A stretch of 64,000 nt of DNA, taken from assembly GCA_965243755.1 (NCBI GenBank), contig CBDEVW010000004.1, positions 272,053 to 336,052 on the forward strand, given 5' to 3'. This document shows positions 2,759 to 18,263 of the stretch, piece after piece; the stretch's first letter is position 1, and the number at the start of each line of letters is the position of its first letter. The notes under the pieces were generated by a model. It ran no database searches. It worked only from the letters and a program-made list of their open reading frames with translations, and was not told the DNA's origin. Both the position numbers and the translations under genes were made by a program. This DNA is from Cyclobacteriaceae bacterium. GTDB lineage: Bacteria; Bacteroidota; Bacteroidia; Cytophagales; Cyclobacteriaceae.

Positions 2759-4141
2759 ATGGCAAGATTCATTCTATTAAAAAAGAGTTTTTATCAATCA
2801 GTACTTACGAAAATTGGTGTATTGGCACTTACAATGCTAATATTGTCCATACTATCCTACCTTATCATTAATAATAGCAAGGCACAACAATACCAAAGAG
2901 ATCTGGACCTTGTCAGTCATATGAAGGTTTTATCTCAACAGATAGGAATTGCCTCGTTGACCAATGAAAAAACAGCTCAATTGATCACACAATTTGATAG
3001 CTGCTACAGCAGGATCAATAGGAAAATTGAAGACCCTAAAACTTTAGATAAGCTTAATGTACATTGGCAGGCTTTTAAGAATTTGTTAGATGTTGAAACT
3101 GAACAATTGGTTTTGGTTGAATCTTCCAGGGAATTACTGCGACAATGTGAAGTAGTTTACAACAGTGCTTATTTGAAAAAAGAGGCAGAAAACAGGTTCA
3201 CCAATACCATAGTGATCATCATATTAAGTCTTTCAGCCTCAGTGATTGCTGTTGGAGCATTTGTCATGCAAAAACAAATGATCACACCTTTAAAGTCGAT
3301 TGTGAAGTTTTTGAGGGCCTTTGGCAATGGAGACCTTACGCATAAACTCAATCAGTCTATTCGGAATGAGATCGGTTATGTGGCCTATAATCTGGATATG
3401 GTCATTGATCAACTTTCCGAGATCATAAAAAAGGTAAATGGGCAATCGAAGCAACTTTTGGATGCCAGCGGCCCACTGACTTCCAATGCAGATAGCCTAA
3501 GTGTGAATGCCGCAGATTTGTCCAGCTCAGCAAGTGAAATTGCCTCCTTGATTGAGGAAATGACAGCCAGTATCGAATCAAATGTTCATACGACCACTAA
3601 TACCAACCAGGAAATCCTTAATGTACTCAAGGAGCTGGACCGATTGAAGAAACTGGTGACCGAAGGTACCAAGTCAGCCAAAGAGGTGAGGGAAAAGACC
3701 AAGATGATCAATATGATTGCCGGCCAAACGAATTTATTGGCGCTGAATGCTGCCATTGAGGCAAAAAGGGCAGGAGAGGCCGGAAAGGGTTTTGCAGTGG
3801 TGGCCCAGGAAGTTCGAAACCTGGCTGAACTCAGTAAACGAGCTGCGGATGATATCATTACCATTTCTGCCAGCAGGGTTACGCTGGCACAGGAAATAGA
3901 ACAACTTTTTGACCAGGTGGTGGAAATCATCAGGGAATCTTCCAAATCTATTGAAGCCATTACTACAGCAAGTCAGGAACAGAAAATCAGTACCCAACAG
4001 ATCAATTCGTCCATGCAGGGTTTAAACAATATTTCAATCTCCACTGAAAATGCAGCGGCAATACTGAAGGACTATGCCGACACCCTTGCCAGGATGTCGG
4101 TAGAACTCAATGAGATAGTTTCCGCTTTCAAAATCAGGTAA
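2759..4141 (+). CDS. Methyl-accepting chemotaxis protein (TM sensor, HAMP, MCP signalling domain)
   Basis: 460 aa with two hydrophobic segments. HAMP-like [23 protein letters not shown]. Highly conserved MCP hairpin tip [35 protein letters not shown]. Confidence 0.9.
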
Positions 4142-5078
4142 TTTCTTTAAAAATGCCAACACCTCGCTCTTCGTCTGAGCTGAGCCATCCACGATACATG
4201 CCTTCGGAATTAAAGGAAATGCCAATATGACCATCCGGGTCCACCGCTATGACACCACCTTCACCTCCCATTGCAACAAGTTTATTCTGAATCACTTCAT
4301 CCGCCGCTTCCTGCAGGCTCATTCCTTTGTATTTAACAAGTGCAGCAATATCATGTGCGACCACAGCGCGAATGAAGAATTCTCCATATCCGGTGCTGGA
4401 CACTGCACACGATTGATTGTCAGCAAAACAGCCACATCCAATTAATGAACTGTCACCAATTCTTCCATATTTTTTATTGGTGAGCCCTCCAGTAGATGTG
4501 CCGGCAGCAAGGTTATCATTCAGATCCAACGCCACTGCACCAACAGTCCCGAATTTTTTCTCACCATCATGATCTAGCAGCACTTTTCCTATCTTCTTGG
4601 CGGCCATCAATTGATTGTACCGGAAATCCGTATAGAAATAAACCGGATCAACCAGTTTCATGTGATGCTCTGCGGCGTACTGTTCCGCACCTTTTCCAGA
4701 GAGATAAACATATTCATCGTCATGCAGGATCTTTCTGGAAAGTACAATTGGGTTTTTAACCCGACTTATAGCAGAAACTGCGCCTGCTCTGGCAGTGGCA
4801 CCATCCATGATAGACGCTTCCATCTCGTGCGTCTCATCATTGGTGAATACTGAACCTTTACCAGCATTGAACAAGGGAGAGTCTTCCAAAGATTTGATAG
4901 TGGCCTCTACAGCATCCAGTGCTGTACCACCTACTTTCAATATACTTTCACCTGCATCTAATGCTTCGTTAAGTGCTGTTTTATATTGCTCCTCCAGTTG
5001 CGGAGTGATTTCATTTCTTAATAAAGTACCTGCACCACCATGGATGGCCAGGGCATATTTTCCTAACATACTACTCAA
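4134..5078 (-). CDS. iaaA: Isoaspartyl peptidase / L-asparaginase (Ntn hydrolase, IaaA type)
   Basis: 314 aa, colinear with E. coli IaaA as I recall it: [33 protein letters not shown], autoprocessing site [26 protein letters not shown]. Confidence 0.9.
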
Positions 5079-5121
5079 TATTTTTAATGTTTTTTCTATT
5101 TACCGGAGCAATGCTCCTTAT

Positions 5122-6516
5122 CTAAAAAGGTCCCCAATCGAATAATAGAACAGGTGGTATCAGCAATAGCATGGCAATAAGAAAGAATGTAATCATTACC
5201 GGGAGCATCCATCTCATCCATTTGTCGTAAGGGACTTTTCCCATGGCCAATACTCCCATTGTTACCCCACTGGTGGGAATGATCAGGTTGGTTAGCCCAT
5301 CACCAAATTGAAAAGCCAATACTGCTGTTTGCCTGCTGATTCCCAATAGATCACTCAATGGGCTCATTATTGGCATGGTCAATGCTGCTTGTCCTGACCC
5401 GGATGGAACAAACAGATTTAAAAAACTCTGCACAAGAAACATGGCTTGTACCGAAATATATGAAGGCAGGTCTTTTACCGAAGATGCAATATGATATAAA
5501 ATTGTATCAAGGATTTTGCCATCCTGGGCAATGATCAAAATGGCTTTAGAGAAGGCGATGACAAGTCCCGCAACCAAAATATCCTTCGCACCATCCACAA
5601 AAGAATCGGCAGCATCATTGGGTGACATTCTGTATATAATTGCACTGATTATGGCCAGAGCGAAAAACAGCCCACCAATTTCATTGATGTACCAACCAAG
5701 ATTACTGACGCCATAGATGAGCAAACCAATGGCAATGAAAAAAAGCGCAAGAATTATTTTCCTAGCGGGAGTGAATACGATCACATCAACCTGATCCAGT
5801 CGATTTTCTCTTTTTTGATCCACCTCATACATTGGGCTGACTGAAGGATTTTTTTCCAGCCGTTTGATATACTTCATGATGAAGAATATTGGAACCAGTG
5901 TTAGGATACCCCAACAAATGATACGATATCCTGATCCACTGAAGGGAGGCAATTCAGCTATACCTTGTGCGATACCAACGGTAAAAGGATTGCTGAACGC
6001 ACCAGCAAAGCCAGCTCCGGCACCAACGAATGGGATAGCCACCCCAACGATGGAATCATAGCCCAAAGCCAATGAAAGTGGGATAGTGATCAAAACGAAT
6101 ACAATTACTTCCTCACTCATACCAAATGTTGCCCCAGCCAGTGAAAACAAAGCAATGAGCGCTGGAATGATCACATTTTTTAATGCAGGCTTGCGTTTGC
6201 ACAACCTGATTAAGCTTTGCAGTGCTGCATTAATGGCTTGCGAGCGATTGATCACGGAAAATGCCCCTCCCACAATCAAAACAAATGCAATGATTTGACC
6301 AGCAGAAATAAAACCTTTCAAGGGACTTGTGAAAAACGCAAAGAAACCCTGAGGAGCCTGCTCGGTGACCTGATAGGAACCAGGCACCACCACTTCACGA
6401 CCACTATTGGTAATTCTTTCAAACTCACCCGCCGGGATCACCCAGGTAAGCCCGGTGAAAATGAGAAGAATAGCGATCAGTATGATCAGGGTATGGGGTA
6501 TTTTTTTTGCTGTCAT
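5122..6516 (-). CDS. yfcC: YfcC / DcuC-type (C4-dicarboxylate anaerobic carrier family) permease
   Basis: 464 aa and polytopic. The N-terminus PHTLIILIAILLIFTGLTWVIPAGEFERI is typical of the YfcC family. The start overlaps the upstream cyanophycinase stop by 4 nt (6513-6516). Confidence 0.8.
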   Translation of the reverse strand: MTAKKIPHTLIILIAILLIFTGLTWVIPAGEFERITNSGREVVVPGSYQVTEQAPQGFFAFFTSPLKGFISAGQIIAFVLIVGGAFSVINRSQAINAALQSLIRLCKRKPALKNVIIPALIALFSLAGATFGMSEEVIVFVLITIPLSLALGYDSIVGVAIPFVGAGAGFAGAFSNPFTVGIAQGIAELPPFSGSGYRIICWGILTLVPIFFIMKYIKRLEKNPSVSPMYEVDQKRENRLDQVDVIVFTPARKIILALFFIAIGLLIYGVSNLGWYINEIGGLFFALAIISAIIYRMSPNDAADSFVDGAKDILVAGLVIAFSKAILIIAQDGKILDTILYHIASSVKDLPSYISVQAMFLVQSFLNLFVPSGSGQAALTMPIMSPLSDLLGISRQTAVLAFQFGDGLTNLIIPTSGVTMGVLAMGKVPYDKWMRWMLPVMITFFLIAMLLLIPPVLLFDWGPF

Positions 6517-7367
6517 TCTATTGGAAATGATTGTTCAGAAGTAAATATGCTCATAATGAGCTGATTTGCACTCAACTTACCGTTAGGGTTACTTTTAATT
6601 CCATCTGGTGAGTGAAACACAAGTACCTGGGATTCACCAATTACAGTAGCCATCCCTTTCACTACTACAATAGCTGTCGATTCATCAATACCAACGCCCT
6701 TGTAGTCAGGGTTTTCCAGGACAGCACTTATCAATCGGTTATGTCTGCTTCTTTTTACAAAGTGTTGATCAATTATAGCTGTTTTGATGAACCCCAGGCC
6801 TTGTTTCAGTTCTATGTTGTTTGTTTCAATGTTGCGAAATGTGCTGTGATACTCAGGGTATTTCAGCTCATTTCCGGTAATCATTTTTTGACTCATCACT
6901 GCTGCCCCTGCACTTGTTCCTGCGATAACTCCTCCGTTTAGATAACATTTTTCAATGGCTTCCTGAATGGCTGTGCCACCGGCAATGTCCATGAATTTAT
7001 TCTGGTCACCACCTGTGATATAGATCAAACGTGCATTTTCAATGCTATCGGTCCGGGTTTTATCGATTGCCTCTCCTTTGTTAAAGTTGAATCCAACAAT
7101 ATTGGTTAATCCCTGTTCTGTGAATTGTTTTCCGGCATAATAAATTGCAGAATCAGGTTCGGAGCTGGACATTGGTAAAATAATGCCATATCCTCCGGAA
7201 TCCAATTGAGCTACCTTGATGAGCCTCTTTATCATTGAAGGAGGACGTTTGCCCCCTCCAATGATAAAGAGTTTGCCAGATGGCCATTCCTTTTGGGTTA
7301 ATGTTTCGGAATTTTGGCCCGTACAGCTTAGGATTATTAAAAGTGCAATTGCAGTGAGTACTCTCAT
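6513..7367 (-). CDS. cphE: Cyanophycinase (peptidase S51) with lipoprotein-type signal
   Basis: 284 aa with signal ..IILSC-TGQ. S51/cyanophycinase motif order: FIIGGGKRPP, ITGGDQNKF, nucleophile elbow GTSAGAAVM, IDQHFVKRSRHNRL. Confidence 0.85.
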   Translation of the reverse strand: MRVLTAIALLIILSCTGQNSETLTQKEWPSGKLFIIGGGKRPPSMIKRLIKVAQLDSGGYGIILPMSSSEPDSAIYYAGKQFTEQGLTNIVGFNFNKGEAIDKTRTDSIENARLIYITGGDQNKFMDIAGGTAIQEAIEKCYLNGGVIAGTSAGAAVMSQKMITGNELKYPEYHSTFRNIETNNIELKQGLGFIKTAIIDQHFVKRSRHNRLISAVLENPDYKGVGIDESTAIVVVKGMATVIGESQVLVFHSPDGIKSNPNGKLSANQLIMSIFTSEQSFPIE

Positions 7368-7422
7368 TTTTGGTGTTATTTGAAAATTGCTTTGTTACGG
7401 CCTACTTTTAGTAACCTAATCA

Positions 7423-8547
7423 CTATTCAATAAAAAAAAGTCCCCTTGGATCATTGTAATCTGCAGTAAGCGTCACTTGACCGGAACCATCAAGGTTGGC
7501 CATAAATACACTTCCTGAGTTTCTTTCGGTCCAGTATATTTTATCATTGGTGTTGTCAATCCCGATCCCATATACGCGGTTACCTGTATCCACAAGTGAT
7601 TCTATATTAGAACCGTCCAGGTTGGCTCTCATCAACTGGCCTGTGTCCGAATTATCAAATATAATTTTTTCATTGACCGGATCCACAGTGATACCATATC
7701 CAAAGCCTCCAGCAGTATAACCGATGATTCTGGTCACTCCACTGCCATCTACATTTCCTACCCAAACGGCTTCTGCATCAACTGCAACGCATGTGATGTA
7801 GAGGTCACCATTGTGGAGGTCTAAGCCTACTGGTAGTTCTCCGAGTCCATGTGTGGCATTGTCGTAAAGTACCGTGCTGGTTTTGGTACTAAGATCCACT
7901 TCCCATATGGCATTGATCCCTGTACCGCGATCAGCAACATAAACTTTGTTGTTGGGGATGTCAAGTGCTATGTCTCTCGGTGCTCCAAACACATCGCTGA
8001 TCACCTCAGAATTGCTTCCATCCAGATCTACTCTCATTAATGTAAGATCATCGTCGTTGGTGTAATAGATGTGTTCATTGACCGGATCATACGCAATACC
8101 AGTTCCATACGCTCCAATATCTATGGATCCTCCTCCAATTTCATTGATGCTTCCACCAGCTGCGTCAATAAAGAAGAGCCTTACCAATAAGGCATTCGGG
8201 TCCTTGATCGTGACCTGTTTTTCAATGAAATCCAGGTCATTGTCAGAAGTTACGGTCATTGAAACAGTGTAGGTGCCTGGGTTAGTATACAAATGAGAAG
8301 GGCTTGCCTCGGTAGAGGAGGTGCCATCACCGAAGTTCCATGCATACGCAACACCGCCAGCATCTTCAGTAAGGTAGGTGGTGTTACTAAATGCGACAGT
8401 AGCAGGAGCAAATCCTTCATTTTCAATGGTGAAGCTGTAGTCAGCCACTACCGAACTGGCCTGTGGCACTGGAAACTCGTCATCTCCACAGGCGCCCAGG
8501 GTTATTGAAAGTATCAGCGTTGCTATTATTGATTTTATGCTTTTCAT
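7423..8547 (-). CDS. Lipoprotein: PKD domain + YWTD (LDL-receptor class B type) beta-propeller
   Basis: 374 aa with lipobox LGAC followed by the acidic stretch GDDE. PKD signature WNFGDGTSSTEASPSHLYTNPGTYTVSMTV. Propeller blades: IYYTNDDDLTLMRVDLDGSN, VYVADRGTG, IIFDNSDTGQLMRANLDGSN, IYWTERNSGSVFMANLDGS. Confidence 0.8.
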   Translation of the reverse strand: MKSIKSIIATLILSITLGACGDDEFPVPQASSVVADYSFTIENEGFAPATVAFSNTTYLTEDAGGVAYAWNFGDGTSSTEASPSHLYTNPGTYTVSMTVTSDNDLDFIEKQVTIKDPNALLVRLFFIDAAGGSINEIGGGSIDIGAYGTGIAYDPVNEHIYYTNDDDLTLMRVDLDGSNSEVISDVFGAPRDIALDIPNNKVYVADRGTGINAIWEVDLSTKTSTVLYDNATHGLGELPVGLDLHNGDLYITCVAVDAEAVWVGNVDGSGVTRIIGYTAGGFGYGITVDPVNEKIIFDNSDTGQLMRANLDGSNIESLVDTGNRVYGIGIDNTNDKIYWTERNSGSVFMANLDGSGQVTLTADYNDPRGLFFIE

Positions 8548-8549
8548 GA

Positions 8550-9929
8550 TTATTCTGCTTTTCTTATGACCATACCTCTAATATCAACACCCGTTTCATT
8601 CACAATCTCTTCATTGCTACCATCCAGATTGGCTGCACGGATGACTCCATCCCGTCCGGCCCAATAAAACTTGCCACTCTCATTGTCAATGGCTATTCCA
8701 TAAGTGCGGTCAGTCGTATTTCCAACCTTCTCTACATTACTCCCATCGAGATCAGCTCTTAAAATCTGGCTGCCATCACTGTCATCAAAGTATATCTTAT
8801 CATTCACTTTATCCACTTCAATGCCATAGCCAAATCCTCCTGCTCCATAGTCAATGATTTTTGAGATGCCTGAGCCATCCGTACTGCCAGTCCATACTGT
8901 TTCAGCATCAAAATCAACAGCTGTGGCAAATACGGTCCCATTGTGAATGTCCAGACCAACAGGAAGGAGAAAGTTTGCGTCATCTACGACACTGTATAGT
9001 GCCGATTTTGAATTATCTGACAGATCAATGGCTGAGATCTGATCAGCACTTCGTTCAACCACATAGACCATATTATTGGAGATGTCCAGGGCAATGTCGC
9101 GCCCACCATTCAAACCAGTGGCAATTTCTACCTGGTTGGTTCCCAGAAGGTTATTTTTATACAGTATCGCACTATCGTCATCCGTATAATAGAATTCTTC
9201 ATTTTCTGCATCATATGCAAGTCCAAAACAGAAACCGGGTAAATCAAAGACATCTTCTACTACCGCAGCATCGCTCAGCGAAATTTTCCGAAGTTTCAGA
9301 TTATCATTATCGATAAAGTACAGCTCAAACTGATTGGGCTGGATGGTAATGACCCGTGAAGCATCACTTGAACCTCCTGTACCTGTTGCAGTTAGTGTTA
9401 CCGTATAATCACCAGCCGTTAAATATGTAAACGTAGGGTTGGTTTCAGTACTGGTGGAATTACCAGGATCACCAAATGACCAAAGCAAACTGGTGGCATT
9501 TTCGGTAGTGCTCATAAAGCTAACTGCCTGACCAACTTTCAGGTCATTTTCATTTTCTATGGTAAAACCAGGTGTAGGAATGATTCCAGCAATGGTTATG
9601 GTTTGAGACGTTACGTCTCTTTGCCCGTTTCCACTTGCTTCCAATGTAACAGTATAATCACCAGGAGTTTCATAAATATGAGTTACTGTTTCCCCAACAG
9701 CTGAAAGTCCATCTCCAAAAGTCCAGTTGAATGTTACCGCATTCTCTGAGGTACTGGCAGAAAAAGTAATGGATTCTCCTTCCATGAGAACGCTTTCATT
9801 GGAGATTTCAAATGAAGCAACCGGATTCAAAGAAGCGTCTTCATCTTCATTACACGACGTAAATAACGCCGCAATTGACAGCACGATAACACATCGTGAT
9901 AAGAGTGTATTGATATATTTAAAATTCAT
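8550..9929 (-). CDS. Lipoprotein: two PKD domains + YWTD-type beta-propeller (paralog of 7423-8547)
   Basis: 459 aa with lipobox FTSC followed by NEDED. Two PKD signatures (WTFGDGLSAVGETVTHIYETPGDYTVTL, WSFGDPGNSTSTETNPTFTYLTAGDYTVTL). Blades: FYYTDDDSAILYKNNLLG, VYVVERSADQISAIDL, IYFDDSDGSQILRADLDGSN, FYWAGRDGVIRAANLDGSN. Confidence 0.8.
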   Translation of the reverse strand: MNFKYINTLLSRCVIVLSIAALFTSCNEDEDASLNPVASFEISNESVLMEGESITFSASTSENAVTFNWTFGDGLSAVGETVTHIYETPGDYTVTLEASGNGQRDVTSQTITIAGIIPTPGFTIENENDLKVGQAVSFMSTTENATSLLWSFGDPGNSTSTETNPTFTYLTAGDYTVTLTATGTGGSSDASRVITIQPNQFELYFIDNDNLKLRKISLSDAAVVEDVFDLPGFCFGLAYDAENEEFYYTDDDSAILYKNNLLGTNQVEIATGLNGGRDIALDISNNMVYVVERSADQISAIDLSDNSKSALYSVVDDANFLLPVGLDIHNGTVFATAVDFDAETVWTGSTDGSGISKIIDYGAGGFGYGIEVDKVNDKIYFDDSDGSQILRADLDGSNVEKVGNTTDRTYGIAIDNESGKFYWAGRDGVIRAANLDGSNEEIVNETGVDIRGMVIRKAE

Positions 9930-9941
9930 GATTTCTATCTT

Positions 9942-11300
9942 TTAGTAAGAAGGATTCTGGATCAATGTCCCGTCAGTGATATTGATCTCTCTTTGTGGAA
10001 TTGGAAAGATGCGCCTGAAGGATTCTAACCCTCTGGTTGATTCCAACCGGTCAAGTCGCACCAAATCAAACCAGTAATGCCCCTCAAAAGCAAACTCTGC
10101 TCTTCGTTCATTCAGGAGAACATCAATTAACTGGCTCTCAGAAGCAACATTTGCAGCGGTCAAACTCGTCAGGCCTGCCCGGTTCCTGATTGTATTGATG
10201 TCTGGAAGCGCATCGGCTGGTGTACCTCCACTCATCATCGCTCTTGCTTCCCCTCTTATAAGATACATTTCTGATAACCTGAGCAAAATGGTATTACCAC
10301 CTTCATCTGCAGGTTCGCTTCCATATTTGGTACACCGTATAAAATTCCCAACTTGCTGGAACAATTGGCCTCTTTCAGCCTCATTGCTGCTCACAGGATC
10401 GAGAAATGATATGAGGTCTGTACTTACGGTTACTTCTGGTGGAGAAATGTACATTTCGATAGCCCACGCACTTGGGTCTTCGAGTGCAATAAAATTCAGC
10501 TCGAATATGGACTCTGCACTGCCTTCTGAAAGGTAAATTTCATTGTAGTCTTCGCTTAGACTATAACTGGAATTATTAATCACCTCGGTAGCTAGTTGTT
10601 CAGCTTCCTGGTATTCACGCTGATACAAATGGACCCTTGCCTTAAGTGCCTGAGCCGCTCCGGAAGAGGCGAAGAATTTGTCTCCATGACTTTCCAGTAA
10701 CTGAATGGCAAGATCCAGATCACTTTCTATTTGTGCATATGATAGGGATACGGTACTTCTTGCCGTTTCCTGAATACTCGATGAGGGGGTCAATGGCAGT
10801 GGAATACCGTAAGCAGAACCACCATCAAAGAATTCACCATATTGCCGGAGGGCATCAAAAAATGCCAGACTTCTCAGAAAGTATGCTGTGCCCAATAATC
10901 TATTTTCATCAGAAGCATCAAGGTCCAGTCCAGGTACTTTTTCAATGACACTGTTTGCAACATTTACCACATCGTATATTGCTACCCAGTTGTCCTGAAT
11001 ATGGAAATTGGATGTAGGCACTATACCAGTCTCCAGTTCTTTCCAAAACTGTTGAAATGCTGCCGCCCTACCATTTCCAGCTGCCATCTCTGTGGCCATA
11101 ATGAAGCGACCACCATAATAGTCACCATCTTGCAGGGCATTGTAGATTCCTATTACTGCGGCTTCAGCCGTTTGAAGATCCACAATAGCATTCTCATTGG
11201 AAATTAAAGTGGGAGGTTCCTGGTCGAGTAAGTCACATGCCGGAACTAACCATACCAGCATTACCATTGCAATTAGCGTATTTCTTGTTTGCTTTTTCAT
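9942..11300 (-). CDS. susD: SusD/RagB-family outer-membrane nutrient-binding lipoprotein
   Basis: Lies immediately downstream of SusC. Lipobox LVPAC. C-terminal ERRAEFAFEGHYWFDLVR motif typical of SusD-like proteins. The ATG at 11300 (MKKQTRN) is preferred over the track's TTG at 11324, which would overlap susC. Confidence 0.9.
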   Translation of the reverse strand: MKKQTRNTLIAMVMLVWLVPACDLLDQEPPTLISNENAIVDLQTAEAAVIGIYNALQDGDYYGGRFIMATEMAAGNGRAAAFQQFWKELETGIVPTSNFHIQDNWVAIYDVVNVANSVIEKVPGLDLDASDENRLLGTAYFLRSLAFFDALRQYGEFFDGGSAYGIPLPLTPSSSIQETARSTVSLSYAQIESDLDLAIQLLESHGDKFFASSGAAQALKARVHLYQREYQEAEQLATEVINNSSYSLSEDYNEIYLSEGSAESIFELNFIALEDPSAWAIEMYISPPEVTVSTDLISFLDPVSSNEAERGQLFQQVGNFIRCTKYGSEPADEGGNTILLRLSEMYLIRGEARAMMSGGTPADALPDINTIRNRAGLTSLTAANVASESQLIDVLLNERRAEFAFEGHYWFDLVRLDRLESTRGLESFRRIFPIPQREINITDGTLIQNPSY

Positions 11301-11313
11301 GATTGGTTCCATT

Positions 11314-14300
11314 TTAAAATTCAAAGTTTAACCCTACTGAATATGTTCTGGCTTGTCCCAGTGTACCAAAGTCTTCGCCTTGAAGTGTGTTGAGTGATTC
11401 ACCACTGCTGGTATTGGTACTTACTTCCGGATCAAAACCCAGGTAGTCGGTCCATGTGAGCAGGTTTTGTCCCTGGGCAAATATCATGGCATTTGACAGT
11501 TTGAGTTTTTGCAGGAGGGCAGCAGGAAGTCGATATGTAAGCTTCACATTTTTAAGTCTCACAAAGTCCCCATCCTCCAGGTATTGTGTGCTAAACCTCT
11601 GCCATTGTAATTGAGGGTTACCGGCATCTTCCGGCCCAACCATAGAAGGTCTTGGAATTTGAGTGATGTCACCGGGTTCACGCCAATAGTCTAAACTTCT
11701 TCTGGTTTGATTTCCATAAGGGATACCACTTCTCGTAGTACCATAATTTTCATAAGCATGACGGCTTTGATTAAAAATTTTATTGCCGCCACTGAATTGA
11801 AAGAAGACCGCTAGCGAGAGGTTTTTATAACTAAAAGTATTCGTGAATCCTCCAAAATAGGAGGGTAGTCCCGATCCCACCGCCTGGCGATCATCCAGGT
11901 TGATCAGGCCATCGCTGTTGATGTCTTCAAATACGGCATCTCCTGTTGTTGGGTCAACTCCCAGAAATTTGATCAAATAAAGCTGGCTCAGCGATTCATC
12001 TTCCAGAAGAATGAAATTTCTACTTAAAATTTGCCCATGATTCAGCACATCAACTACTCTATTTTGTAGTGTGGTGAAATTAATTCCTGTTGTCCATTGG
12101 AATTCTTTCCCGGAAATATTCTGGCTGTTGATGGCCAACTCAAATCCTTCATTTTCTATTTCTCCAATGTTGGAGGTGGTGCTGAAGAAACCCAGTGTTC
12201 CGGGCACATCTACATCCATAAGCAGATTAGTAGTGTTTTTCTTAAAATAATCTGCGACAATACTGACTTTGTTAAATAGAGACAGGTCTATTCCGACATC
12301 CAACTGAGCAGTTTGCTCCCAGCCTAATTTAGGATTACCCAGAACAGATGGGTTGGATCCTCCAATTCCATTGTATGAAGAAGCACCCCACAAGCCCTGC
12401 CAGGTGTAGTTTCCAATTTCAGCATTTCCAACCAGGCCGTAGCTGGCACGTAGTTTTCCATCTGAGAATATATTTCGAATGCCTTCAAAGAATGCCTCGT
12501 TGGAGAACCGCCATCCGATGGACCCAGAAGGCAACAACGCATAGCGATTGTCTGGTCCAAATCTTGATGACCCATCCATTCGTACAGATCCCTGAATCAA
12601 ATACTTTCCCTGAAAATCGTAGGTAACCCTTCCAAGGTAGGATAAAAATCCATAGGCGGTGGCACTTGAAGTACCAGTAGTGTTTGCTGCTGCACCAATT
12701 TTAATGATTTGATTATTGGGGAAGCCATTACCTGAAATCTCGGAAAGATCCATTTGAGATTCCTGAAAGCTAAAGCCACCTAAAATATTGAAATGGTGAT
12801 CCTCACCAATGGTGGTCGCATAGGTCAAGGTGTTTTCATTGATCCATACCAACTCCTCCAAAGTAGCGAATATGCCAGCGCCAGTAGGGGCCTCATTACT
12901 GCCTACAGGAACAAATGATTCCTCCATTAAGGAGTTGTAATCAGCTGACCAGGTAGTCTTAAAAGTAAGGTTGTTCAGGATCTCCCATTCCACATAGGTG
13001 GAGGCAAGAATTCTGTTAGATGCAGAATTATTCACATATTGTTCAGCAATGTATAAGGGGTTTTCCAATGCCCACCAGCCATTATATGAAAATGGGTTAG
13101 TGTAGGTGCCATCATCATTTTTTAGTGGAGCGGTTGGATCCCACGCCTGTGCATTGACTACTACACCATATTCATCATTTTCGTTGATAGTTCGTTGATG
13201 GACACCTCGGGTAAGTAAGACATTCGTCCCAACTCCAACTTTCTCATTTAGAGAGTGATCAAGCCTCAAACGGGTACTGAATCGTTCAAACGCCTGGCCC
13301 AACTGTATGCCTTTTTGGTCAAAATAGTTGCCGGAAATCACGTATCTGGTACTCTCATTTCCTCCTGAAAGGCTGAGGTCAACATTTTGGGTAATTCCAG
13401 TTCTGAATATTTCATCATACACATTATGATTGGGAAGGTTTGGATCATTTGGATCTCCCAACACATCATTCCAATAATTTTCGCCTAACCCATCAAATGC
13501 AGCTGCTGCGTTCATGAACTGTATCCATTCACTTGAACTCATCATTTCAGGGGTATTGCTTATTTCTGATACTCCCATGCTATAGCCTACATTGACTTTG
13601 GTTTTGCCAACCTGTCCACTTTTGGTTGTGATGATAATTACTCCATTAGCACCCCGTGTACCATAAATTGCCGCGGCGCTGGCATCCTTCAATACTGAAA
13701 TAGATTCAATTTCATTTGGATTGATATTAGCCAATGGGTTAATGGGTTGAATATTGCTATTCAGAGCAGACTGATTGCCAGTAAGAATCGGTATGCCATC
13801 CACAACGATCAAGGGTTGGCTACTGGCACCAATAGAGGTTACACCACGGATATTCAAATTGAATGCAGAACCAGGTGTGGCAGACGCGCTTCCAATATAA
13901 ACACCTGACAATTTGCCCTGTATCGCACCATCGAAACTGTAGGTTGCTGCTACATTAGCTACATCTTCATTATCGACACTTGCTATTGAGCTGGTAATGT
14001 CACGTTTCTTTTGTGTGCCATATCCCACAACTACGATTTCATCTAATTCTGTTACATCTTCAGATAGGGTGACATTCAGTATATCCCCGGTGATGTTCAA
14101 TTCATTGGAGACATATCCAACAAATGAAAAAATCAGTACAGAGGAATCATCCGTCACTTCAAGCTTGTATTGACCATCGAAATCTGTGATCGTCCCTTTT
14201 GAAGTTCCTTTGATGACTATGCTTACCCCGGGTAGCGGCTCTCCCTTTTCATCGGTCACCTGGCCAGATACAATTGTCTGGGCCCATCCGGTAGTTGCTG

Positions 14301-14340
14301 TCAGTAATAACAGCAGGTTAAGTAATAGTTTTATTTTCAT
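11314..14340 (-). CDS. susC: SusC/RagA-family TonB-linked outer-membrane transporter
   Basis: 1008 aa. Signal peptide, then a carboxypeptidase-regulatory-like domain (VSGQVTDEKGEPLPGVSIVIKGTSKGTITDFDGQYKL). Plug region (VVVGYGTQKKRDITSSI; ISVLKDASAAAIYGTRGANGVIIITTK). Beta-barrel ends in YSVGLNFEF. Confidence 0.95.
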   Translation of the reverse strand: MKIKLLLNLLLLLTATTGWAQTIVSGQVTDEKGEPLPGVSIVIKGTSKGTITDFDGQYKLEVTDDSSVLIFSFVGYVSNELNITGDILNVTLSEDVTELDEIVVVGYGTQKKRDITSSIASVDNEDVANVAATYSFDGAIQGKLSGVYIGSASATPGSAFNLNIRGVTSIGASSQPLIVVDGIPILTGNQSALNSNIQPINPLANINPNEIESISVLKDASAAAIYGTRGANGVIIITTKSGQVGKTKVNVGYSMGVSEISNTPEMMSSSEWIQFMNAAAAFDGLGENYWNDVLGDPNDPNLPNHNVYDEIFRTGITQNVDLSLSGGNESTRYVISGNYFDQKGIQLGQAFERFSTRLRLDHSLNEKVGVGTNVLLTRGVHQRTINENDEYGVVVNAQAWDPTAPLKNDDGTYTNPFSYNGWWALENPLYIAEQYVNNSASNRILASTYVEWEILNNLTFKTTWSADYNSLMEESFVPVGSNEAPTGAGIFATLEELVWINENTLTYATTIGEDHHFNILGGFSFQESQMDLSEISGNGFPNNQIIKIGAAANTTGTSSATAYGFLSYLGRVTYDFQGKYLIQGSVRMDGSSRFGPDNRYALLPSGSIGWRFSNEAFFEGIRNIFSDGKLRASYGLVGNAEIGNYTWQGLWGASSYNGIGGSNPSVLGNPKLGWEQTAQLDVGIDLSLFNKVSIVADYFKKNTTNLLMDVDVPGTLGFFSTTSNIGEIENEGFELAINSQNISGKEFQWTTGINFTTLQNRVVDVLNHGQILSRNFILLEDESLSQLYLIKFLGVDPTTGDAVFEDINSDGLINLDDRQAVGSGLPSYFGGFTNTFSYKNLSLAVFFQFSGGNKIFNQSRHAYENYGTTRSGIPYGNQTRRSLDYWREPGDITQIPRPSMVGPEDAGNPQLQWQRFSTQYLEDGDFVRLKNVKLTYRLPAALLQKLKLSNAMIFAQGQNLLTWTDYLGFDPEVSTNTSSGESLNTLQGEDFGTLGQARTYSVGLNFEF

Positions 14341-14434
14341 GCTTGGTATAATTTAAATTTCAATTGAGCAGCCAGTGAGTAGCTACTTTTAATAGTGGTC
14401 GCTCCGGGTAAGGAGCTGACGTCATTGAAAGATA

Positions 14435-14462
14435 CCTAGCAATCGAAGATAGGCTGCAGGTT
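14435..14462 (-). promoter_or_regulatory. Conserved 28-nt intergenic motif, copy 1 (94 nt upstream of susC start)
   Basis: CCTAGCAATCGAAGATAGGCTGCAGGTT, 24/28 identical to copy 3. Its 3' part (GGCTGCA, 14452-14458) pairs with TGCAGCC at 14481-14487. Confidence 0.55.
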
Positions 14463-14529
14463 CATTAAACCCAGTGATTTTGCAGCCTGAAGCAGAATGA
14501 TTTTAGTTTTAGCGCCTAACATCTTTACA

Positions 14530-16494
14530 TTAATTAAAATATAGTTTTTGAGTAAACATATATTGTTGATCCTGGTCTTTGATCACCAGTATTTTCAATC
14601 CGGAGATAAGAAGTTGATCGGTTATTTCCAGATTGCCATTAATCTGCTGCATGCTCACGCATCGACCGGTAAGGTCAAAGAGCTGCACTTGTAAATTTTT
14701 ACTATTCGGGTTGTTGATGAAAAGTCCTTTACCCGTGTTAATAATTTCTATCTGTAAATGTTTCCCGGATTTTGTGATCGTTGAGGGGATTTCCAGCTCA
14801 TAGTCAGGGTCATCTGTTGGAACTGGAGTCCCAATATCAAAGGTGCTTGTCCCTACCATAACCTGATATGTAAACCGGTCATAAGCGACGACATTTCTTA
14901 CGGTACTAAAATCGTGTCGGGAGCTTTCGTTATTTATAAGTAAAGTGGGCAGATCTCCATATGTCTGAAGCATGTTCCTGCCATTCAACTGACCCAATTT
15001 CACATAGCTTCCTTCCATTAAGTAAAGTCCATATTTCAGTGATTGTTGGGCCATCATAAATGGAATGGAAGAAGTTGTGTTTTCATAATATTCCGTGGTT
15101 GACCGATCAATAGTATTGGGCATTACGGCAGTAGTTTTCAGCAAACCGAGCCCTTCTCGAAAATCCAGCCGGTTCCTGTAGGATGCTGCCGGATCCGTCA
15201 GATGGTTGGTCACGAAGACCGGGCCGGAAAAACGGCTGTCCTGTCCCATAAACCCAATGATCATTTCATTTCTGAACAAATGACTGTGTAGTAGTTCGCC
15301 TGTAGGTCCACCTTCTAAAAAGGAAAATAACTGATCATCATTATTTCCGACAAACAATACTTTTCTCGACTGACGAATATTGTTTCTGATTGAAATACTA
15401 TCCACATGATTATAAGTGTCCAGAGTAGGAAGCACGGTGACATGGGGAGCACCATAGTTGTGAAGCCTGCTTTTGATGGCATTTGCGGTTGATGTAACTC
15501 CGGACACAATAACTATTGCCTCCGACGACTCATGCTCATTGACAAATGCTTCTAAAAAATTGAGGTTATCGCCAATTTCATCATTTCCGCTTAGCAATAA
15601 GGTGTAATTACCATTTTCTTCGATTTGCGTTACCTCGGTATTTAATGCAGGCGCTGAAATAATTTCGAAATTGAGGAGATTGAATGACTGACCATCGGTT
15701 AGCGAAAAAACATTCAACGAGTCAGATGTAAAAGTGTGGGCTTCCCTGGTAAATGAGGAAGGGGTAATTACAGTAACTGCACCAGTCCCATAAACTTGTC
15801 CTACGTTATTACTATCGATACATAATGCGGTTTGATCGTCCACTCCAATTCCACCAATAGAGGCTCCATTATTGAAATCCCAATGGGCCATGAACGCCAT
15901 TAGTCGGAAAATTCTTCCTCTTTCAATGAAATGGGTGTCAAAAATGTAATCTGGTTGAAGGTTAAGAAAATCTTTTTTGAGATTGAAAAGTGGAGAGGTA
16001 ATGTCCACTAAACCATCATCCGGATAAACAGAACCATTGGATGCTGTAAACACCACCTGGGATAGTATTGCCATACCTGCAGACGTTCCACCAATGACTC
16101 CACCATCATTGAACTTTTGGGTGATAATATCCATGAGGTTGGTTCCTTTGTACGTCTCATAATAATTCGACTGGTCGCCACCTTTGAAAAAGAAAAAATC
16201 AAATTCTAATAATTCATTTTCCAGTGCTTGCGAGTTCGCATATTCACTGGAATTGATCTGAAAGTTTGTGGCCTCTGATGCGCCAAGGGATATGAAATAC
16301 TCGGGAAGGTCTTCGGTTTCACTGTTGAAACTAATAATGGCTACTTTGTGATTGGCAGCTTGCTCAATGCCCCAGGAGTACGGAGTATCACTCCATGATC
16401 CCTCAGCACCACCGCCAACAAGTAACAACTTTCCCTGTCCAAACAACAGGTTTGAAAAGAATAAACCAAAAAGTAATAAATAGATTTTTTGCAT
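14530..16494 (-). CDS. Secreted tandem peptidase-S51 (cyanophycinase-like) protein with putative T9SS C-terminal sorting domain
   Basis: 654 aa with a signal peptide. The first S51 module is intact (LLLVGGGAEGS, FFFKGGDQSNYY, GGTSAGMAILS, FDTHFIERGRIFRL). The second module has the same motif order but degenerate residues (LLLSGNDE, LFVGNNDDQ, GFMGQDSRFSG). The last ~75 aa (..NNPNSKNLQVQLFDLTGRCV..SGLKILVIKDQ..QKLYFN) resemble a Por-secretion tail. Confidence 0.8.
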   Translation of the reverse strand: MQKIYLLLFGLFFSNLLFGQGKLLLVGGGAEGSWSDTPYSWGIEQAANHKVAIISFNSETEDLPEYFISLGASEATNFQINSSEYANSQALENELLEFDFFFFKGGDQSNYYETYKGTNLMDIITQKFNDGGVIGGTSAGMAILSQVVFTASNGSVYPDDGLVDITSPLFNLKKDFLNLQPDYIFDTHFIERGRIFRLMAFMAHWDFNNGASIGGIGVDDQTALCIDSNNVGQVYGTGAVTVITPSSFTREAHTFTSDSLNVFSLTDGQSFNLLNFEIISAPALNTEVTQIEENGNYTLLLSGNDEIGDNLNFLEAFVNEHESSEAIVIVSGVTSTANAIKSRLHNYGAPHVTVLPTLDTYNHVDSISIRNNIRQSRKVLFVGNNDDQLFSFLEGGPTGELLHSHLFRNEMIIGFMGQDSRFSGPVFVTNHLTDPAASYRNRLDFREGLGLLKTTAVMPNTIDRSTTEYYENTTSSIPFMMAQQSLKYGLYLMEGSYVKLGQLNGRNMLQTYGDLPTLLINNESSRHDFSTVRNVVAYDRFTYQVMVGTSTFDIGTPVPTDDPDYELEIPSTITKSGKHLQIEIINTGKGLFINNPNSKNLQVQLFDLTGRCVSMQQINGNLEITDQLLISGLKILVIKDQDQQYMFTQKLYFN

Positions 16495-16541
16495 CGTAGT
16501 AACAATATAAAGTAGATAAATATCCGGACTTTATAGTGTTT

Positions 16542-16569
16542 ACTAGCAGTTGAAAATGGGTTGAAGATT
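16542..16569 (-). promoter_or_regulatory. Conserved 28-nt intergenic motif, copy 2 (47 nt upstream of the tandem-S51 gene start)
   Basis: ACTAGCAGTTGAAAATGGGTTGAAGATT, 23/28 identical to copy 3. Confidence 0.55.
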
Positions 16570-16733
16570 TTGCAATGAAAGGGACTTTACATAGGAGATT
16601 TTGCCTATGAAAACACTAAGAGGTTTGTATGTTAGTTGTCCGTTCATTACATGAATATGACCCTAATATTAAGAGGAATTCTGGAAAAATAAAATTTTTT
16701 GCAATGAATAATATCGGATGAAGAGGTGGAAAT

Positions 16734-16775
16734 GAAACCGTGAATCATGGTTTTTAAGTCATAAATCACGGTTTC
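16734..16775 (-). terminator. Hairpin downstream of S51 lipoprotein gene (possible terminator/attenuator)
   Basis: Perfect 10-nt inverted repeat GAAACCGTGA (16734-16743) / TCACGGTTTC (16766-16775) with a 22-nt loop, 8 nt past the stop at 16783. The T tract on the minus strand is weak. Confidence 0.4.
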
Positions 16776-16782
16776 AGCTGTT

Positions 16783-17835
16783 TTAATTGGTCCTAAATCT
16801 TCCTCTGTCCACATAAAAATACTCCCATGATCCACCACTGCCGGAATTCCAGTTGGTCAGCCAGAAATACCTGGATCCGCTGGTGTTTGCCAGAATTTTG
16901 TACACCTTAACGGCTTGTCTGTTTCTATACCAGTCCAGTTTTTGGCCTGGAGAACAAACTTCAGGACCCTGATTGTTCTGTTGCAGGAAAAAGGCATACC
17001 CATAGCCATATATAGAAGCTTTTCCATTACTATCGATACAAACAGCGGTTTCTTCATCCACTCCGATCCCCTTAGCTGACCACCCCCAATCAGTATTTGC
17101 TCTGGCAAGAAAGGCCATATGTCTGCCTCTTCTGTCCGGGTTGTCGTAGTGTGTGTCTGTGATGGTGTTACCCAGGTATGGGTTGTTCAGGAAATCACTT
17201 CCTCCAAGTGTGAGGTAGTGGTTATAGGGATTTCGTAATGCTTCTCTGGACCTAATGGTGCCATTTTCCGCACTAAAATAACCTTCACCCTGAATGGCAC
17301 ACCCGGCACTTGTACCTCCAATTGGTACGTTTTTAGTGTTTCTTAAGTAATTAATGGCATCTTCCACTTTGGTGTTTTTCCAGTAATTCACATAATCCCA
17401 CTGATCGCCTCCGGCAATGAAAAGCGCCTCTGCATCCCTGATGGTTTGTTCCACCTGGGAGTTATTGGCGAGACTTCTGCTATCAATAAGCAATGTTTCT
17501 ACAGAATTGGCATTGCCCAGGTCATAGATGTACTGATTATATCCGGTCCCACCAGATGCCCGAATGACTACAAAGTCACCACCCCCGGCTTTGTTGAGCA
17601 TCCATTCTATGGCTTCATCCACATCGGGACCACCACCCATTAAAACTGTCCCTCCGGAAGTGGAAGTATTGACATCCTGCGTGCTACCAACGATCCCTAT
17701 GGATGCTGGTGAACTACCACCTGCGGCCGACGGAACTTCCGGCAGCTGATCAGTAGTAGAGAGCTCCTCCTGACATGCTGAAAACAGCAGTACAGCAATT
17801 AGTGAAAACAAAGGTTTTCTGATTGAATTGTACAT
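16783..17835 (-). CDS. Peptidase S51 (cyanophycinase-like) lipoprotein
   Basis: 350 aa with lipobox LFSAC followed by QEEL. Motifs: VLMGGGPDVDEA, FIAGGDQWDYV, GGTSAGCAIQ, TDTHYDNPDRRGRHMAFL. Confidence 0.8.
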   Translation of the reverse strand: MYNSIRKPLFSLIAVLLFSACQEELSTTDQLPEVPSAAGGSSPASIGIVGSTQDVNTSTSGGTVLMGGGPDVDEAIEWMLNKAGGGDFVVIRASGGTGYNQYIYDLGNANSVETLLIDSRSLANNSQVEQTIRDAEALFIAGGDQWDYVNYWKNTKVEDAINYLRNTKNVPIGGTSAGCAIQGEGYFSAENGTIRSREALRNPYNHYLTLGGSDFLNNPYLGNTITDTHYDNPDRRGRHMAFLARANTDWGWSAKGIGVDEETAVCIDSNGKASIYGYGYAFFLQQNNQGPEVCSPGQKLDWYRNRQAVKVYKILANTSGSRYFWLTNWNSGSGGSWEYFYVDRGRFRTN

Positions 17836-17975
17836 AATTACAATGTTTGGTTAGAAATAGATTGCAAAAAAGATGGGCTTCAAATCCCGGTTTGGAATTC
17901 GATAATATGAGACTTCCAACAAGACAGCTTTAGTTGCCTGTTTTACTTAGTGGATATGAAGCTTTATGGAGATGT

Positions 17976-18003
17976 CCTAGCAGTTGAAAATTGGCTGCAG
18001 GTT
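17976..18003 (-). promoter_or_regulatory. Conserved 28-nt intergenic motif, copy 3 (140 nt upstream of S51 lipoprotein gene start)
   Basis: CCTAGCAGTTGAAAATTGGCTGCAGGTT. The left flank (CTTTATGGAGATGT) also resembles the flank of copy 2 (CTTTATAGTGTTTA). Confidence 0.55.
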
Positions 18004-18219
18004 TCTGAGATGTACTGGTTTTACAGGCGTAGCAAAGACATGCTTAAGAGTGCCTGAATATGTAGATATGGTACATTCCATGTGTGGAATATAAGACGCC
18101 TAAAAAATTAAACCAAACAAAGTACCGAAAAATCCTGTCAATAAGAATAATATTTTGATATAATTAATAATTCAGAATAATATACCTTACAAGAACTAAG
18201 TTGGGCTAGGAAATATAAA

Positions 18220-18244
18220 AGGTGACTATCAGAAATAGTCACCT
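18220..18244 (-). terminator. Intrinsic terminator after the IscA-like gene
   Basis: AGGTGACTAT-CAGAA-ATAGTCACCT 20 nt past the stop (18264), followed on the minus strand by TTTTATATTT. Confidence 0.6.
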
Positions 18245-18263
18245 TCATATCTATTGAATAAGT

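Follow-up and report, generated by a model that had tools for sequence, protein, structure and literature searches.

Locus-specific control of SusC/D in polysaccharide utilization loci (PULs) is exerted by hybrid two-component systems, by SusR, by pairs of extracytoplasmic function (ECF) sigma and anti-sigma factors, and by cis-antisense small RNAs (sRNAs). We know of no description of leader-peptide control of a SusCD locus, and our literature search found nothing of the kind. To our knowledge, only a handful of metabolite-sensing leader peptides (TnaC, SpeFL) are known beside the antibiotic sensors, none of them in the Bacteroidota or before SusC/D. TnaC is encoded by a 24-aa upstream open reading frame (uORF) in the leader of the catabolic and transport operon tnaCAB of E. 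coli; its conserved residues sit in the part of the peptide that lies in the exit tunnel, and the stalled ribosome blocks Rho next to the stop codon (PMC8450073). SpeFL, the 34-aa ornithine-sensing uORF of speF-potE, arrests the ribosome at UAG by blocking release factor 1 (RF1), with a Rho-dependent read-out; the metabolite is captured by the nascent chain together with the tunnel, and the genes controlled are an enzyme and a basic-amino-acid antiporter (bioRxiv 10.1101/604074). Both peptides switch on catabolic or transport operons in response to the substrate of the pathway (PMC8450073; bioRxiv 10.1101/604074). Arrest at a stop codon has also been documented in the Bacteroidota, for Sec-related uORFs (PMC10987492). 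Here we analyze a 64,000-nucleotide stretch of DNA (the window) from a Cyclobacteriaceae bacterium (GCA_965243755.1, contig CBDEVW010000004.1, positions 272,053 to 336,052), which contains a SusCD locus with peptidases of family S51 and, upstream of its transcription units, three copies of a 28-nt motif. The motif marks an apparently undescribed Bacteroidota family of leader peptides, the LQPIF(D/N)C peptides.

The three copies all lie on the plus strand, at positions 14435-14462 (copy 1, 94 nt before the susC ATG), 16542-16569 (copy 2, 47 nt before the ATG of a tandem S51 gene), and 17976-18003 (copy 3, 140 nt before the ATG of an S51 lipoprotein gene); all genes of the locus are on the minus strand. 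On recounting, copies 1 and 3 are identical at 24 of 28 positions, copies 2 and 3 at 23, and copies 1 and 2 at 20. The original prediction, which had proposed a shared operator or alternative-sigma promoter, is borne out in these particulars: the common orientation, the coordinates, the distances to the start codons and the first two identities were all given there correctly. It had noticed the motif nowhere else in the window, and we found no fourth copy there at up to three mismatches (shuffled windows give 0 expected matches), nor did fuzzy matching that allowed up to six mismatches across the complete 6.14-Mb genome reveal any copy beyond these three. A dispersed repeat of the REP or MITE kind, which had been named as an outcome that would refute that prediction, is thus ruled out, because the genome holds only three copies and all are inside the S51/SusCD locus. 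An additional genomic match, 'KVPIFDC*' on contig C3, falls inside another open reading frame (ORF) and is a chance match, as are two pattern matches inside other ORFs of the congener G001. Conservation in relatives, the further check that had been suggested, also holds. In three congeneric genomes, whose tandem S51 proteins are just 60-63% identical, the motif occupies the same three intergenic positions, and it is likewise kept at those positions in another genus of the family (40% identity).

Read on the gene strand, the motif is CAG CCN ATN TTY RAY TGY TAR, which translates as Q-P-I-F-D/N-C-stop. Each copy is the last nine codons and the stop codon of a short uORF of 28-34 codons. uORF a (14436..14522, minus strand) has 28 codons and TAG (MLGAKTKIILLQAAKSLGLMNLQPIFDC) and ends in copy 1; uORF b (16543..16647, minus strand) has 34 codons and TAG (MNGQLTYKPLSVFIGKISYVKSLSLQNLQPIFNC) and ends in copy 2; both match the peptide profile described below. 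uORF c (17977..18081, minus strand), with 34 codons and TAG (MECTISTYSGTLKHVFATPVKPVHLRNLQPIFNC), ends in copy 3; its translation and ATG were checked, it matches the profile with an E value of 1.8e-9 in its own genome, and its ortholog in genome G003 is of equal length. The similarity among the copies extends upstream of the 28-mer to a second conserved block about 20 nt away, G-Y-AAA-N-YC, which corresponds to a Lys-(Pro/Ser) pair at peptide positions -14 and -13.

To collect relatives of these uORFs, a degenerate pattern was scanned against 301 genomes of the window's family. This returned about 50 exact matches, in which the variable positions fall on every third base; extended upstream in frame, the family matches give open frames of 20-70 codons, most with an ATG that yields roughly 23-45 aa. 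A back-translated pattern, which fixed L, Q, P, I, F, D, C and TAR, returned at least 119 stretches from a collection with one genome per species (by our own estimate, a pattern of about 36 bits would match about 13 times by chance in 596 Gb). The family loci and the copies among the matches listed for the species-level scan together make 177 non-redundant copies with a downstream gene, spanning the Cytophagales, the Saprospiraceae/Lewinellaceae and the Flavobacteriales. Matches in metagenome-assembled genomes of the Chloroflexia, Melainabacteria and Rhodothermales were rejected, having open frames of just 10-28 codons and no downstream gene.

Conservation in this set follows the codons. Within the last seven, the first and second positions are invariant and the third positions have an entropy of about 0.7-1.8 bits; the leucine at -7 is written with all six of its codons (TTG 46, TTA 35, CTG 33, CTT 31, CTA 18, CTC 14). 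The consensus tail is K-x-[LPV]-x-L-x-[GN]-L-Q-P-[IV]-F-[DN]-C-stop, preceded by a variable N-terminal half, and it includes residues that the search pattern did not constrain: K at -14 (77%), L at -10 (90%), and G or N at -8 (97%). Between the genome of the window (G000) and G003, the last 14 codons of the three uORFs differ by 12 synonymous codon changes and 1 non-synonymous change, compared with 8 synonymous and 19 non-synonymous changes in the N-terminal part; the ATG position and the length of the three orthologous uORFs are kept, and the conservation stops exactly at the stop codon. Because the conservation is codon-periodic and the third positions are free, the conserved object is the peptide, not a DNA site. 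This pattern leaves us with little doubt that the uORFs are real and that their peptide sequence is under selection.

The peptides have a median length of 31 aa from the first ATG (interquartile range 28-34), and a hydrophobic signal- or transmembrane-like stretch is found in only 2 of 153. No match to them was found in Pfam or NCBIfam, and searching every PDB chain, the nascent chains of stalled ribosomes among them, with a profile returned spurious matches only (E > 0.3). The same type of search among 5.8 billion predicted proteins identified 66 members; every named one is a 'hypothetical protein', and none has a Pfam domain. The string 'QPIFDC' was not found in a literature search, and the literature on leader or arrest peptides in the Bacteroidota or before SusC held nothing relevant to the LQPIF(D/N)C family. 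A precursor of a ribosomally synthesized and post-translationally modified peptide (RiPP) was considered and rejected: maturase-type domains are absent in and beside the locus, and the pattern is the reverse of that expected, with a variable N-terminus and an invariant C-terminus.

The genes that follow the uORFs are of few kinds. In 173 of the 177 copies the next gene encodes SusC (77), an adhesin-like type IX secretion system (T9SS) protein (40), the beta-aspartyl peptidase IaaA (25), a tandem S51 peptidase (21), or an S51 lipoprotein (10), and the gap from the uORF to the main ATG ranges from about 30 to 370 nt, mostly 45-200 nt. By its predicted gene content, the locus is an enzyme set for cyanophycin breakdown, in which cyanophycinase releases beta-Asp-Arg and an isoaspartyl dipeptidase then cleaves it (PMC10206079, PMC9974463). 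Gene order varies by lineage, and the uORFs stay with their transcription units; a locus has up to four paralogous uORFs, each 5' of a different unit. In the Saprospiraceae and Cryomorphaceae, the T9SS protein, which is about 290 aa long, secreted and cleaved-adhesin-like, heads an S51-YfcC operon, and it is a candidate for binding the substrate at the cell surface. Phaeodactylibacter luteus (L199, 7146-7513), where the pair heads divergent operons, and about 40 similar loci of the Saprospiraceae, Lewinellaceae and Cryomorphaceae have two uORFs back to back, one heading SusC-SusD-IaaA and the other heading the T9SS protein followed by S51 and YfcC. The Flavobacteriaceae have a different layout, with two tandem uORFs about 160-190 nt apart before the single operon SusC-SusD-IaaA-S51-YfcC-S51-S51, as in Galbibacter (L196; 17020, 17208), Aquimarina (L197; 17181, 17374) and G373 (L205), an arrangement that recalls tandem riboswitches.

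The congener G001, which is without the locus, is also without the uORF. Stand-alone homologs of the tandem S51 protein occur without a uORF in G002 (L022, 7774-9321, 44% identity) and G030 (L025, 3888-5891, 37%), in both cases outside any SusCD/IaaA locus; the leader therefore goes with the locus and not with the enzyme family. The original prediction had found no regulator inside the locus, and the same is true of distant versions of it: in three distant lineages no conserved regulator gene was found in or beside the locus. The neighbors in these lineages are unrelated (ThrRS, an ion-channel-like protein, OmpH, AlaDH, and once an NrtR-like protein), so the uORFs are the only conserved candidate regulator. 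A search of a contig collection for related loci with the tandem S51 protein gave no match; the orthologous loci were found by genome search. Two or more pattern matches are present in 19 of the 301 genomes of the window's family, and the distribution of the uORF family is patchy, since a peptide profile run against 300 evenly sampled genomes of the phylum added only 1 further solid genome.

Exact TAnnTTTG boxes are most frequent at 100-140 nt upstream of the uORF stop, and the spacers between uORF and main gene contain just 3 of them, which places the uORF inside the 5' leader. The stop codon is TAG in 138 of the 177 copies (78%), TAA in 35 and TGA in 4, in a search whose pattern allowed TAG and TAA equally; the long ORFs of G000 end in TAA (57%), TAG (22%) and TGA (21%). 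The spacers contain 22% C, 13% G and 38% T, compared with 17% each of C and G in ordinary leaders, and in the first 30 nt past the uORF stop there are about two C for each G. Rho-binding sites have such a composition, which is also reminiscent of the tna and speF leaders. Taken with the placement before each unit of one type of locus, these features suggest that the uORFs probably have a cis-regulatory role.

Our preferred reading, which we hold with somewhat better than even confidence from the sequence comparison, is that the uORFs encode cis-acting leader peptides of the arrest type, one for each transcription-unit leader of this cyanophycin-type locus. A nascent peptide of about 31 residues would still be wholly in the exit tunnel at the moment the A site receives the stop codon. 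The invariant tail would then lie by the peptidyl transferase center, with a second conserved patch 10-14 residues back, and together with the bias to a stop codon read by RF1 only, this makes a signature of termination arrest. By analogy with TnaC and SpeFL, we lean narrowly toward the view that the peptides act by such arrest at the stop codon, the nascent peptide inhibiting its own release. The arrest could be stabilized by a cytoplasmic pathway product, for example beta-Asp-Arg or arginine, which is a guess by analogy and one that we make only tentatively; of the two, beta-Asp-Arg would be the more logical effector, because the dipeptidase gene itself carries a leader. The stalled ribosome would switch on the downstream gene. 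In some leaders (predicted for units a and b), it may do so by melting a helix that joins the uORF end and the main start codon; more generally, it may mask the pyrimidine-rich, G-poor stretch after the stop from Rho, or prevent the formation of a terminator hairpin. Translation, stalling, effector and read-out we infer by comparison and analogy.

Predicted folds of the leaders in the window provide possible read-outs. In leader b, whose spacer is only 48 nt long (16495..16542, minus strand), a long hairpin is predicted in which the Cys codon and stop of the uORF and the bases that follow pair with the region through the main AUG. Its energy of -14.6 kcal/mol (z -3.81) was reached by 0 of 200 shuffles, and once the footprint of a stalled ribosome is masked, opening the start region takes 5.1 kcal/mol in place of 10.0, a predicted translational switch like that of ermC. 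In leader a (spacer 14341..14435, minus strand, 95 nt), UUC-GAU-UGC-UAG-G-UAU is predicted to pair with the susC AUG and the 9 nt before it (-31.6 kcal/mol, z -4.10); the ensemble opening energy of its start region is low (2.7 kcal/mol). The 141-nt spacer c (uORF c stop to the lipoprotein ATG; 17836..17976, minus strand) folds no better than shuffled sequences (z -1.1). Across the family, only in the tandem-S51 class is the uORF end more complementary to the start region than in controls (-9.0 kcal/mol, against -5.6 and -7.0), 19 of 175 spacers contain a terminator-like hairpin with a T-tail where 3.2 are expected, and the spacers fold better than their mononucleotide shuffles (mean z -2.0). 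From the C-rich, G-poor spacers, the excess of terminator-like hairpins, the spacer structure and the folds of leaders b and a, it may be that most leaders switch at the level of transcription (Rho or intrinsic) and the short ones at that of translation.

Several observations count against arrest-type leader peptides. No uniform read-out was found across the family. Occlusion of the start region was rejected as a general mechanism (opening energy 6.3 kcal/mol, against 7.1 in ordinary genes), as was pairing of the uORF end with the start region outside the tandem-S51 class, and hairpins whose start falls within the stretch covered by a ribosome at the stop codon are not enriched (p = 0.19). The invariance at L, Q, P, I, F, D and C is in part ascertainment, because the species-level pattern fixed these residues; the looser family scan and the profile search agree in finding only I/V, D/N and TAG/TAA/TGA as alternatives. 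The TAG bias and the composition counts ignore shared ancestry, and 24 of the 177 frames are without an in-frame ATG that gives at least 15 aa. Finally, a C-terminal Cys is not known to be a poor substrate for release, unlike the Pro of TnaC or of the NSP-stop and NAP-stop peptides.

The lack of a uniform stall read-out would be less of a difficulty if the uORFs acted in cis without any sequence-specific arrest, either through translational coupling or re-initiation on mRNAs without Shine-Dalgarno sequences, or by sensing the supply of Asp/Asn or Cys at their codons beside the stop. We regard this as unlikely, and consider it the alternative that fares best. Coupling would be in keeping with the short spacers and with the position of uORF a, 7 nt past the preceding stop codon, but it needs no invariant seven-residue peptide across three orders. 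Sensing of supply could explain why the residue at -2 varies solely within the metabolically related pair D/N, in a pathway that yields Asp; against it, the tail has no regulatory codon runs but a single D/N and a single C codon, with L, Q, P, I and F equally invariant, and paired terminator/antiterminator hairpins are not general. The classical attenuator of the trpL or hisL type was likewise rejected: codon runs are absent from the tail, and terminator-like sites are confined to 19 of 175 spacers.

The clear selection on the peptide sequence would also be expected if the products acted in trans, as micro-proteins, signaling peptides, or substrates or partners of the S51 enzymes or SusC, an explanation we consider improbable. 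The invariant C-terminal Cys could be chemically reactive, and S51 enzymes act on Asp-containing peptides (PMC9239234), which the Asp-Cys end of the tail would suit. However, a trans-acting product would need one gene, and here up to four paralogs per locus each lie 5' of their own unit and co-diverge with it. Nor would a product of this kind account for N-terminal halves that vary freely at a length held near 31 aa, or for conservation that ends at a stop codon with a preference for TAG; an export signal is lacking (2 of 153), and the locus encodes no modifying enzyme.

A DNA operator or alternative-sigma (ECF-like) promoter for a regulator encoded elsewhere, as proposed in the original prediction, would fit an element that is specific to the locus, precedes each unit, and has no regulator gene beside it. 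Where codons -5 to -2 are written CCT-ATT-TTT-GAY, as in 33 of the 177 copies, they spell TATTTTTG, a match to the Bacteroidota -7 box TAnnTTTG. This box looks like a by-product of codon choice, and it could create internal promoters in some genomes. It is missing from about 80% of the copies, and the resemblance to ECF promoters of the AAC-N-CGT type depends in the same way on particular synonymous codons (33 of 177). The 3-nt period, the free third positions, the six leucine codons and the variable stops are those of a coding sequence, as is the ratio of 12 synonymous to 1 non-synonymous changes in the tail of orthologs; the element contains no palindrome or fixed direct repeat, and its distance to the main ATG ranges over about 30-370 nt. 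Readings of the 28-mer by eye as an ECF, sigma-54 or Bacteroidota -33/-7 promoter gave no consistent fit. We therefore give an operator or promoter very little credence. What stands of the proposal is that the element is specific to the locus, is placed before each of the three transcription units, and has a shared cis-regulatory role, still the best reading; the operator or alternative-sigma promoter does not, since the conservation is codon-periodic. "Intergenic motifs" are accordingly worth checking for codon periodicity before they are read as operators.

Least credible of all, to the point of being negligible, is a structured RNA (a riboswitch-like leader or antisense sRNA) that is open in one frame by chance: leaders a and b do fold better than shuffles and the spacers have a mean z of -2.0, but an Rfam scan of the window finds only tRNA, the variable positions are wobble positions and not covarying pairs, and the conserved block has no family-wide helix.

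Apart from the uORFs, the locus in the window comprises the following genes, all on the minus strand. Unit c begins downstream of an intrinsic terminator at 18218..18246 (minus strand), identified in a promoter/terminator scan, with a 13-pair stem and a T-rich tail, which belongs to the upstream gene of an Fe-S (IscA-like) protein; this strong terminator insulates unit c from read-through. The gene that follows uORF c (16783..17835) encodes the S51 (cyanophycinase-family) lipoprotein of 350 aa (Pfam PF03575, with TIGR02069 below its cut-off). Directly after its stop codon, at 16734-16775 (minus strand), inspection by eye showed an inverted repeat of 10 bp (GAAACCGTGA...TCACGGTTTC) around a loop of 22 nt. 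This is probably the terminator of the lipoprotein gene and would separate unit c from unit b; it is missing from the list of the terminator scan because of its long loop. Unit b contains the gene of the tandem S51 peptidase (14530..16494, 654 aa; PF03575). uORF a begins 7 nt past the TAA of that gene (14523-14532), with no terminator between them. Its leader is thus intercistronic and may be reached by ribosomes that terminate upstream.

The operon downstream of uORF a (4134..14340), annotated from Pfam and NCBIfam, extends from SusC to the beta-aspartyl peptidase. By Pfam, it starts with SusC (11314-14340), SusD (9942-11324) and two PKD/propeller proteins (8550-9929 and 7423-8547). These are followed by a cyanophycinase, the third S51 protein (6513-7367), by a YfcC/DcuC-type permease (5122-6516), and by the beta-aspartyl (isoaspartyl) peptidase (4134-5078); the last two have strong Pfam matches and best NCBIfam matches (YfcC for the permease) below the equivalog cut-off. 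Of the three S51 proteins, only the third scores above the equivalog cut-off of TIGR02069 (149.5 bits, cut-off 126.6), with 115 bits for the tandem protein and 63 for the lipoprotein, so these two may have diverged in substrate or role. On the plus strand, a gene at 2759-4141 directly adjoins the locus and encodes a protein with a methyl-accepting chemotaxis protein (MCP) signaling domain and a weak, sub-threshold HAMP-like match, an unusual neighbor for SusCD; it is not conserved beside the locus in the other lineages examined.

If arrest-type leader peptides do control this locus, a PUL-like system would have the ribosome itself as its regulator and no protein sensor. This would account for the absence of a regulator gene from the cyanophycin-type locus that is found in marine and soil Cytophagales, Saprospiraceae and Flavobacteriales. 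In its fullest form, which we put forward as a doubtful but attractive possibility, a chain ending in ...LQPIFDC would together with the tunnel bind beta-Asp-Arg or arginine, block RF1 at UAG and induce all units, making these peptides the first metabolite-sensing arrest family of the Bacteroidota. The arrest hypothesis is directly testable, since it concerns a defined peptide of about 31 aa, an invariant seven-residue tail, UAG, and few candidate ligands, and since nature provides replicates in the form of three to four paralogs per locus and the tandem pairs of the Flavobacteriaceae.

Among described systems, the known regulators of PULs differ in that none is encoded in or next to this type of locus in three distant lineages. 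The NSP-stop and NAP-stop peptides, which monitor secretion, end in Pro, have a localization signal at the N-terminus, and are encoded before secA or secDF; the peptides described here end in Cys, have a signal-like stretch in only 2 of 153 cases, and precede catabolic and uptake genes. TnaC is closer in its leader, as the spacers here are also C-rich and G-poor directly past the stop, but it has no sequence similarity to our peptides, which have Cys in place of Pro and TAG (RF1) in place of TGA (RF2), occur as several paralogs per locus, and belong to the phylum Bacteroidota; stalling, Rho and ligand are here only inferred. SpeFL is similar in length (34 aa, compared with a median of 31 aa) but is unrelated in sequence, is found in gamma-proteobacteria, and occurs in single copy, and its counterpart effector here is guessed. 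By analogy, the LQPIF(D/N)C family is best read as functionally of the TnaC/SpeFL kind. It is not homologous to TnaC, SpeFL or the NSP-stop and NAP-stop peptides, from which it is distinguished by its Cys-stop end, its several copies per locus, its phylum, and its target, a SusCD locus without a protein regulator.

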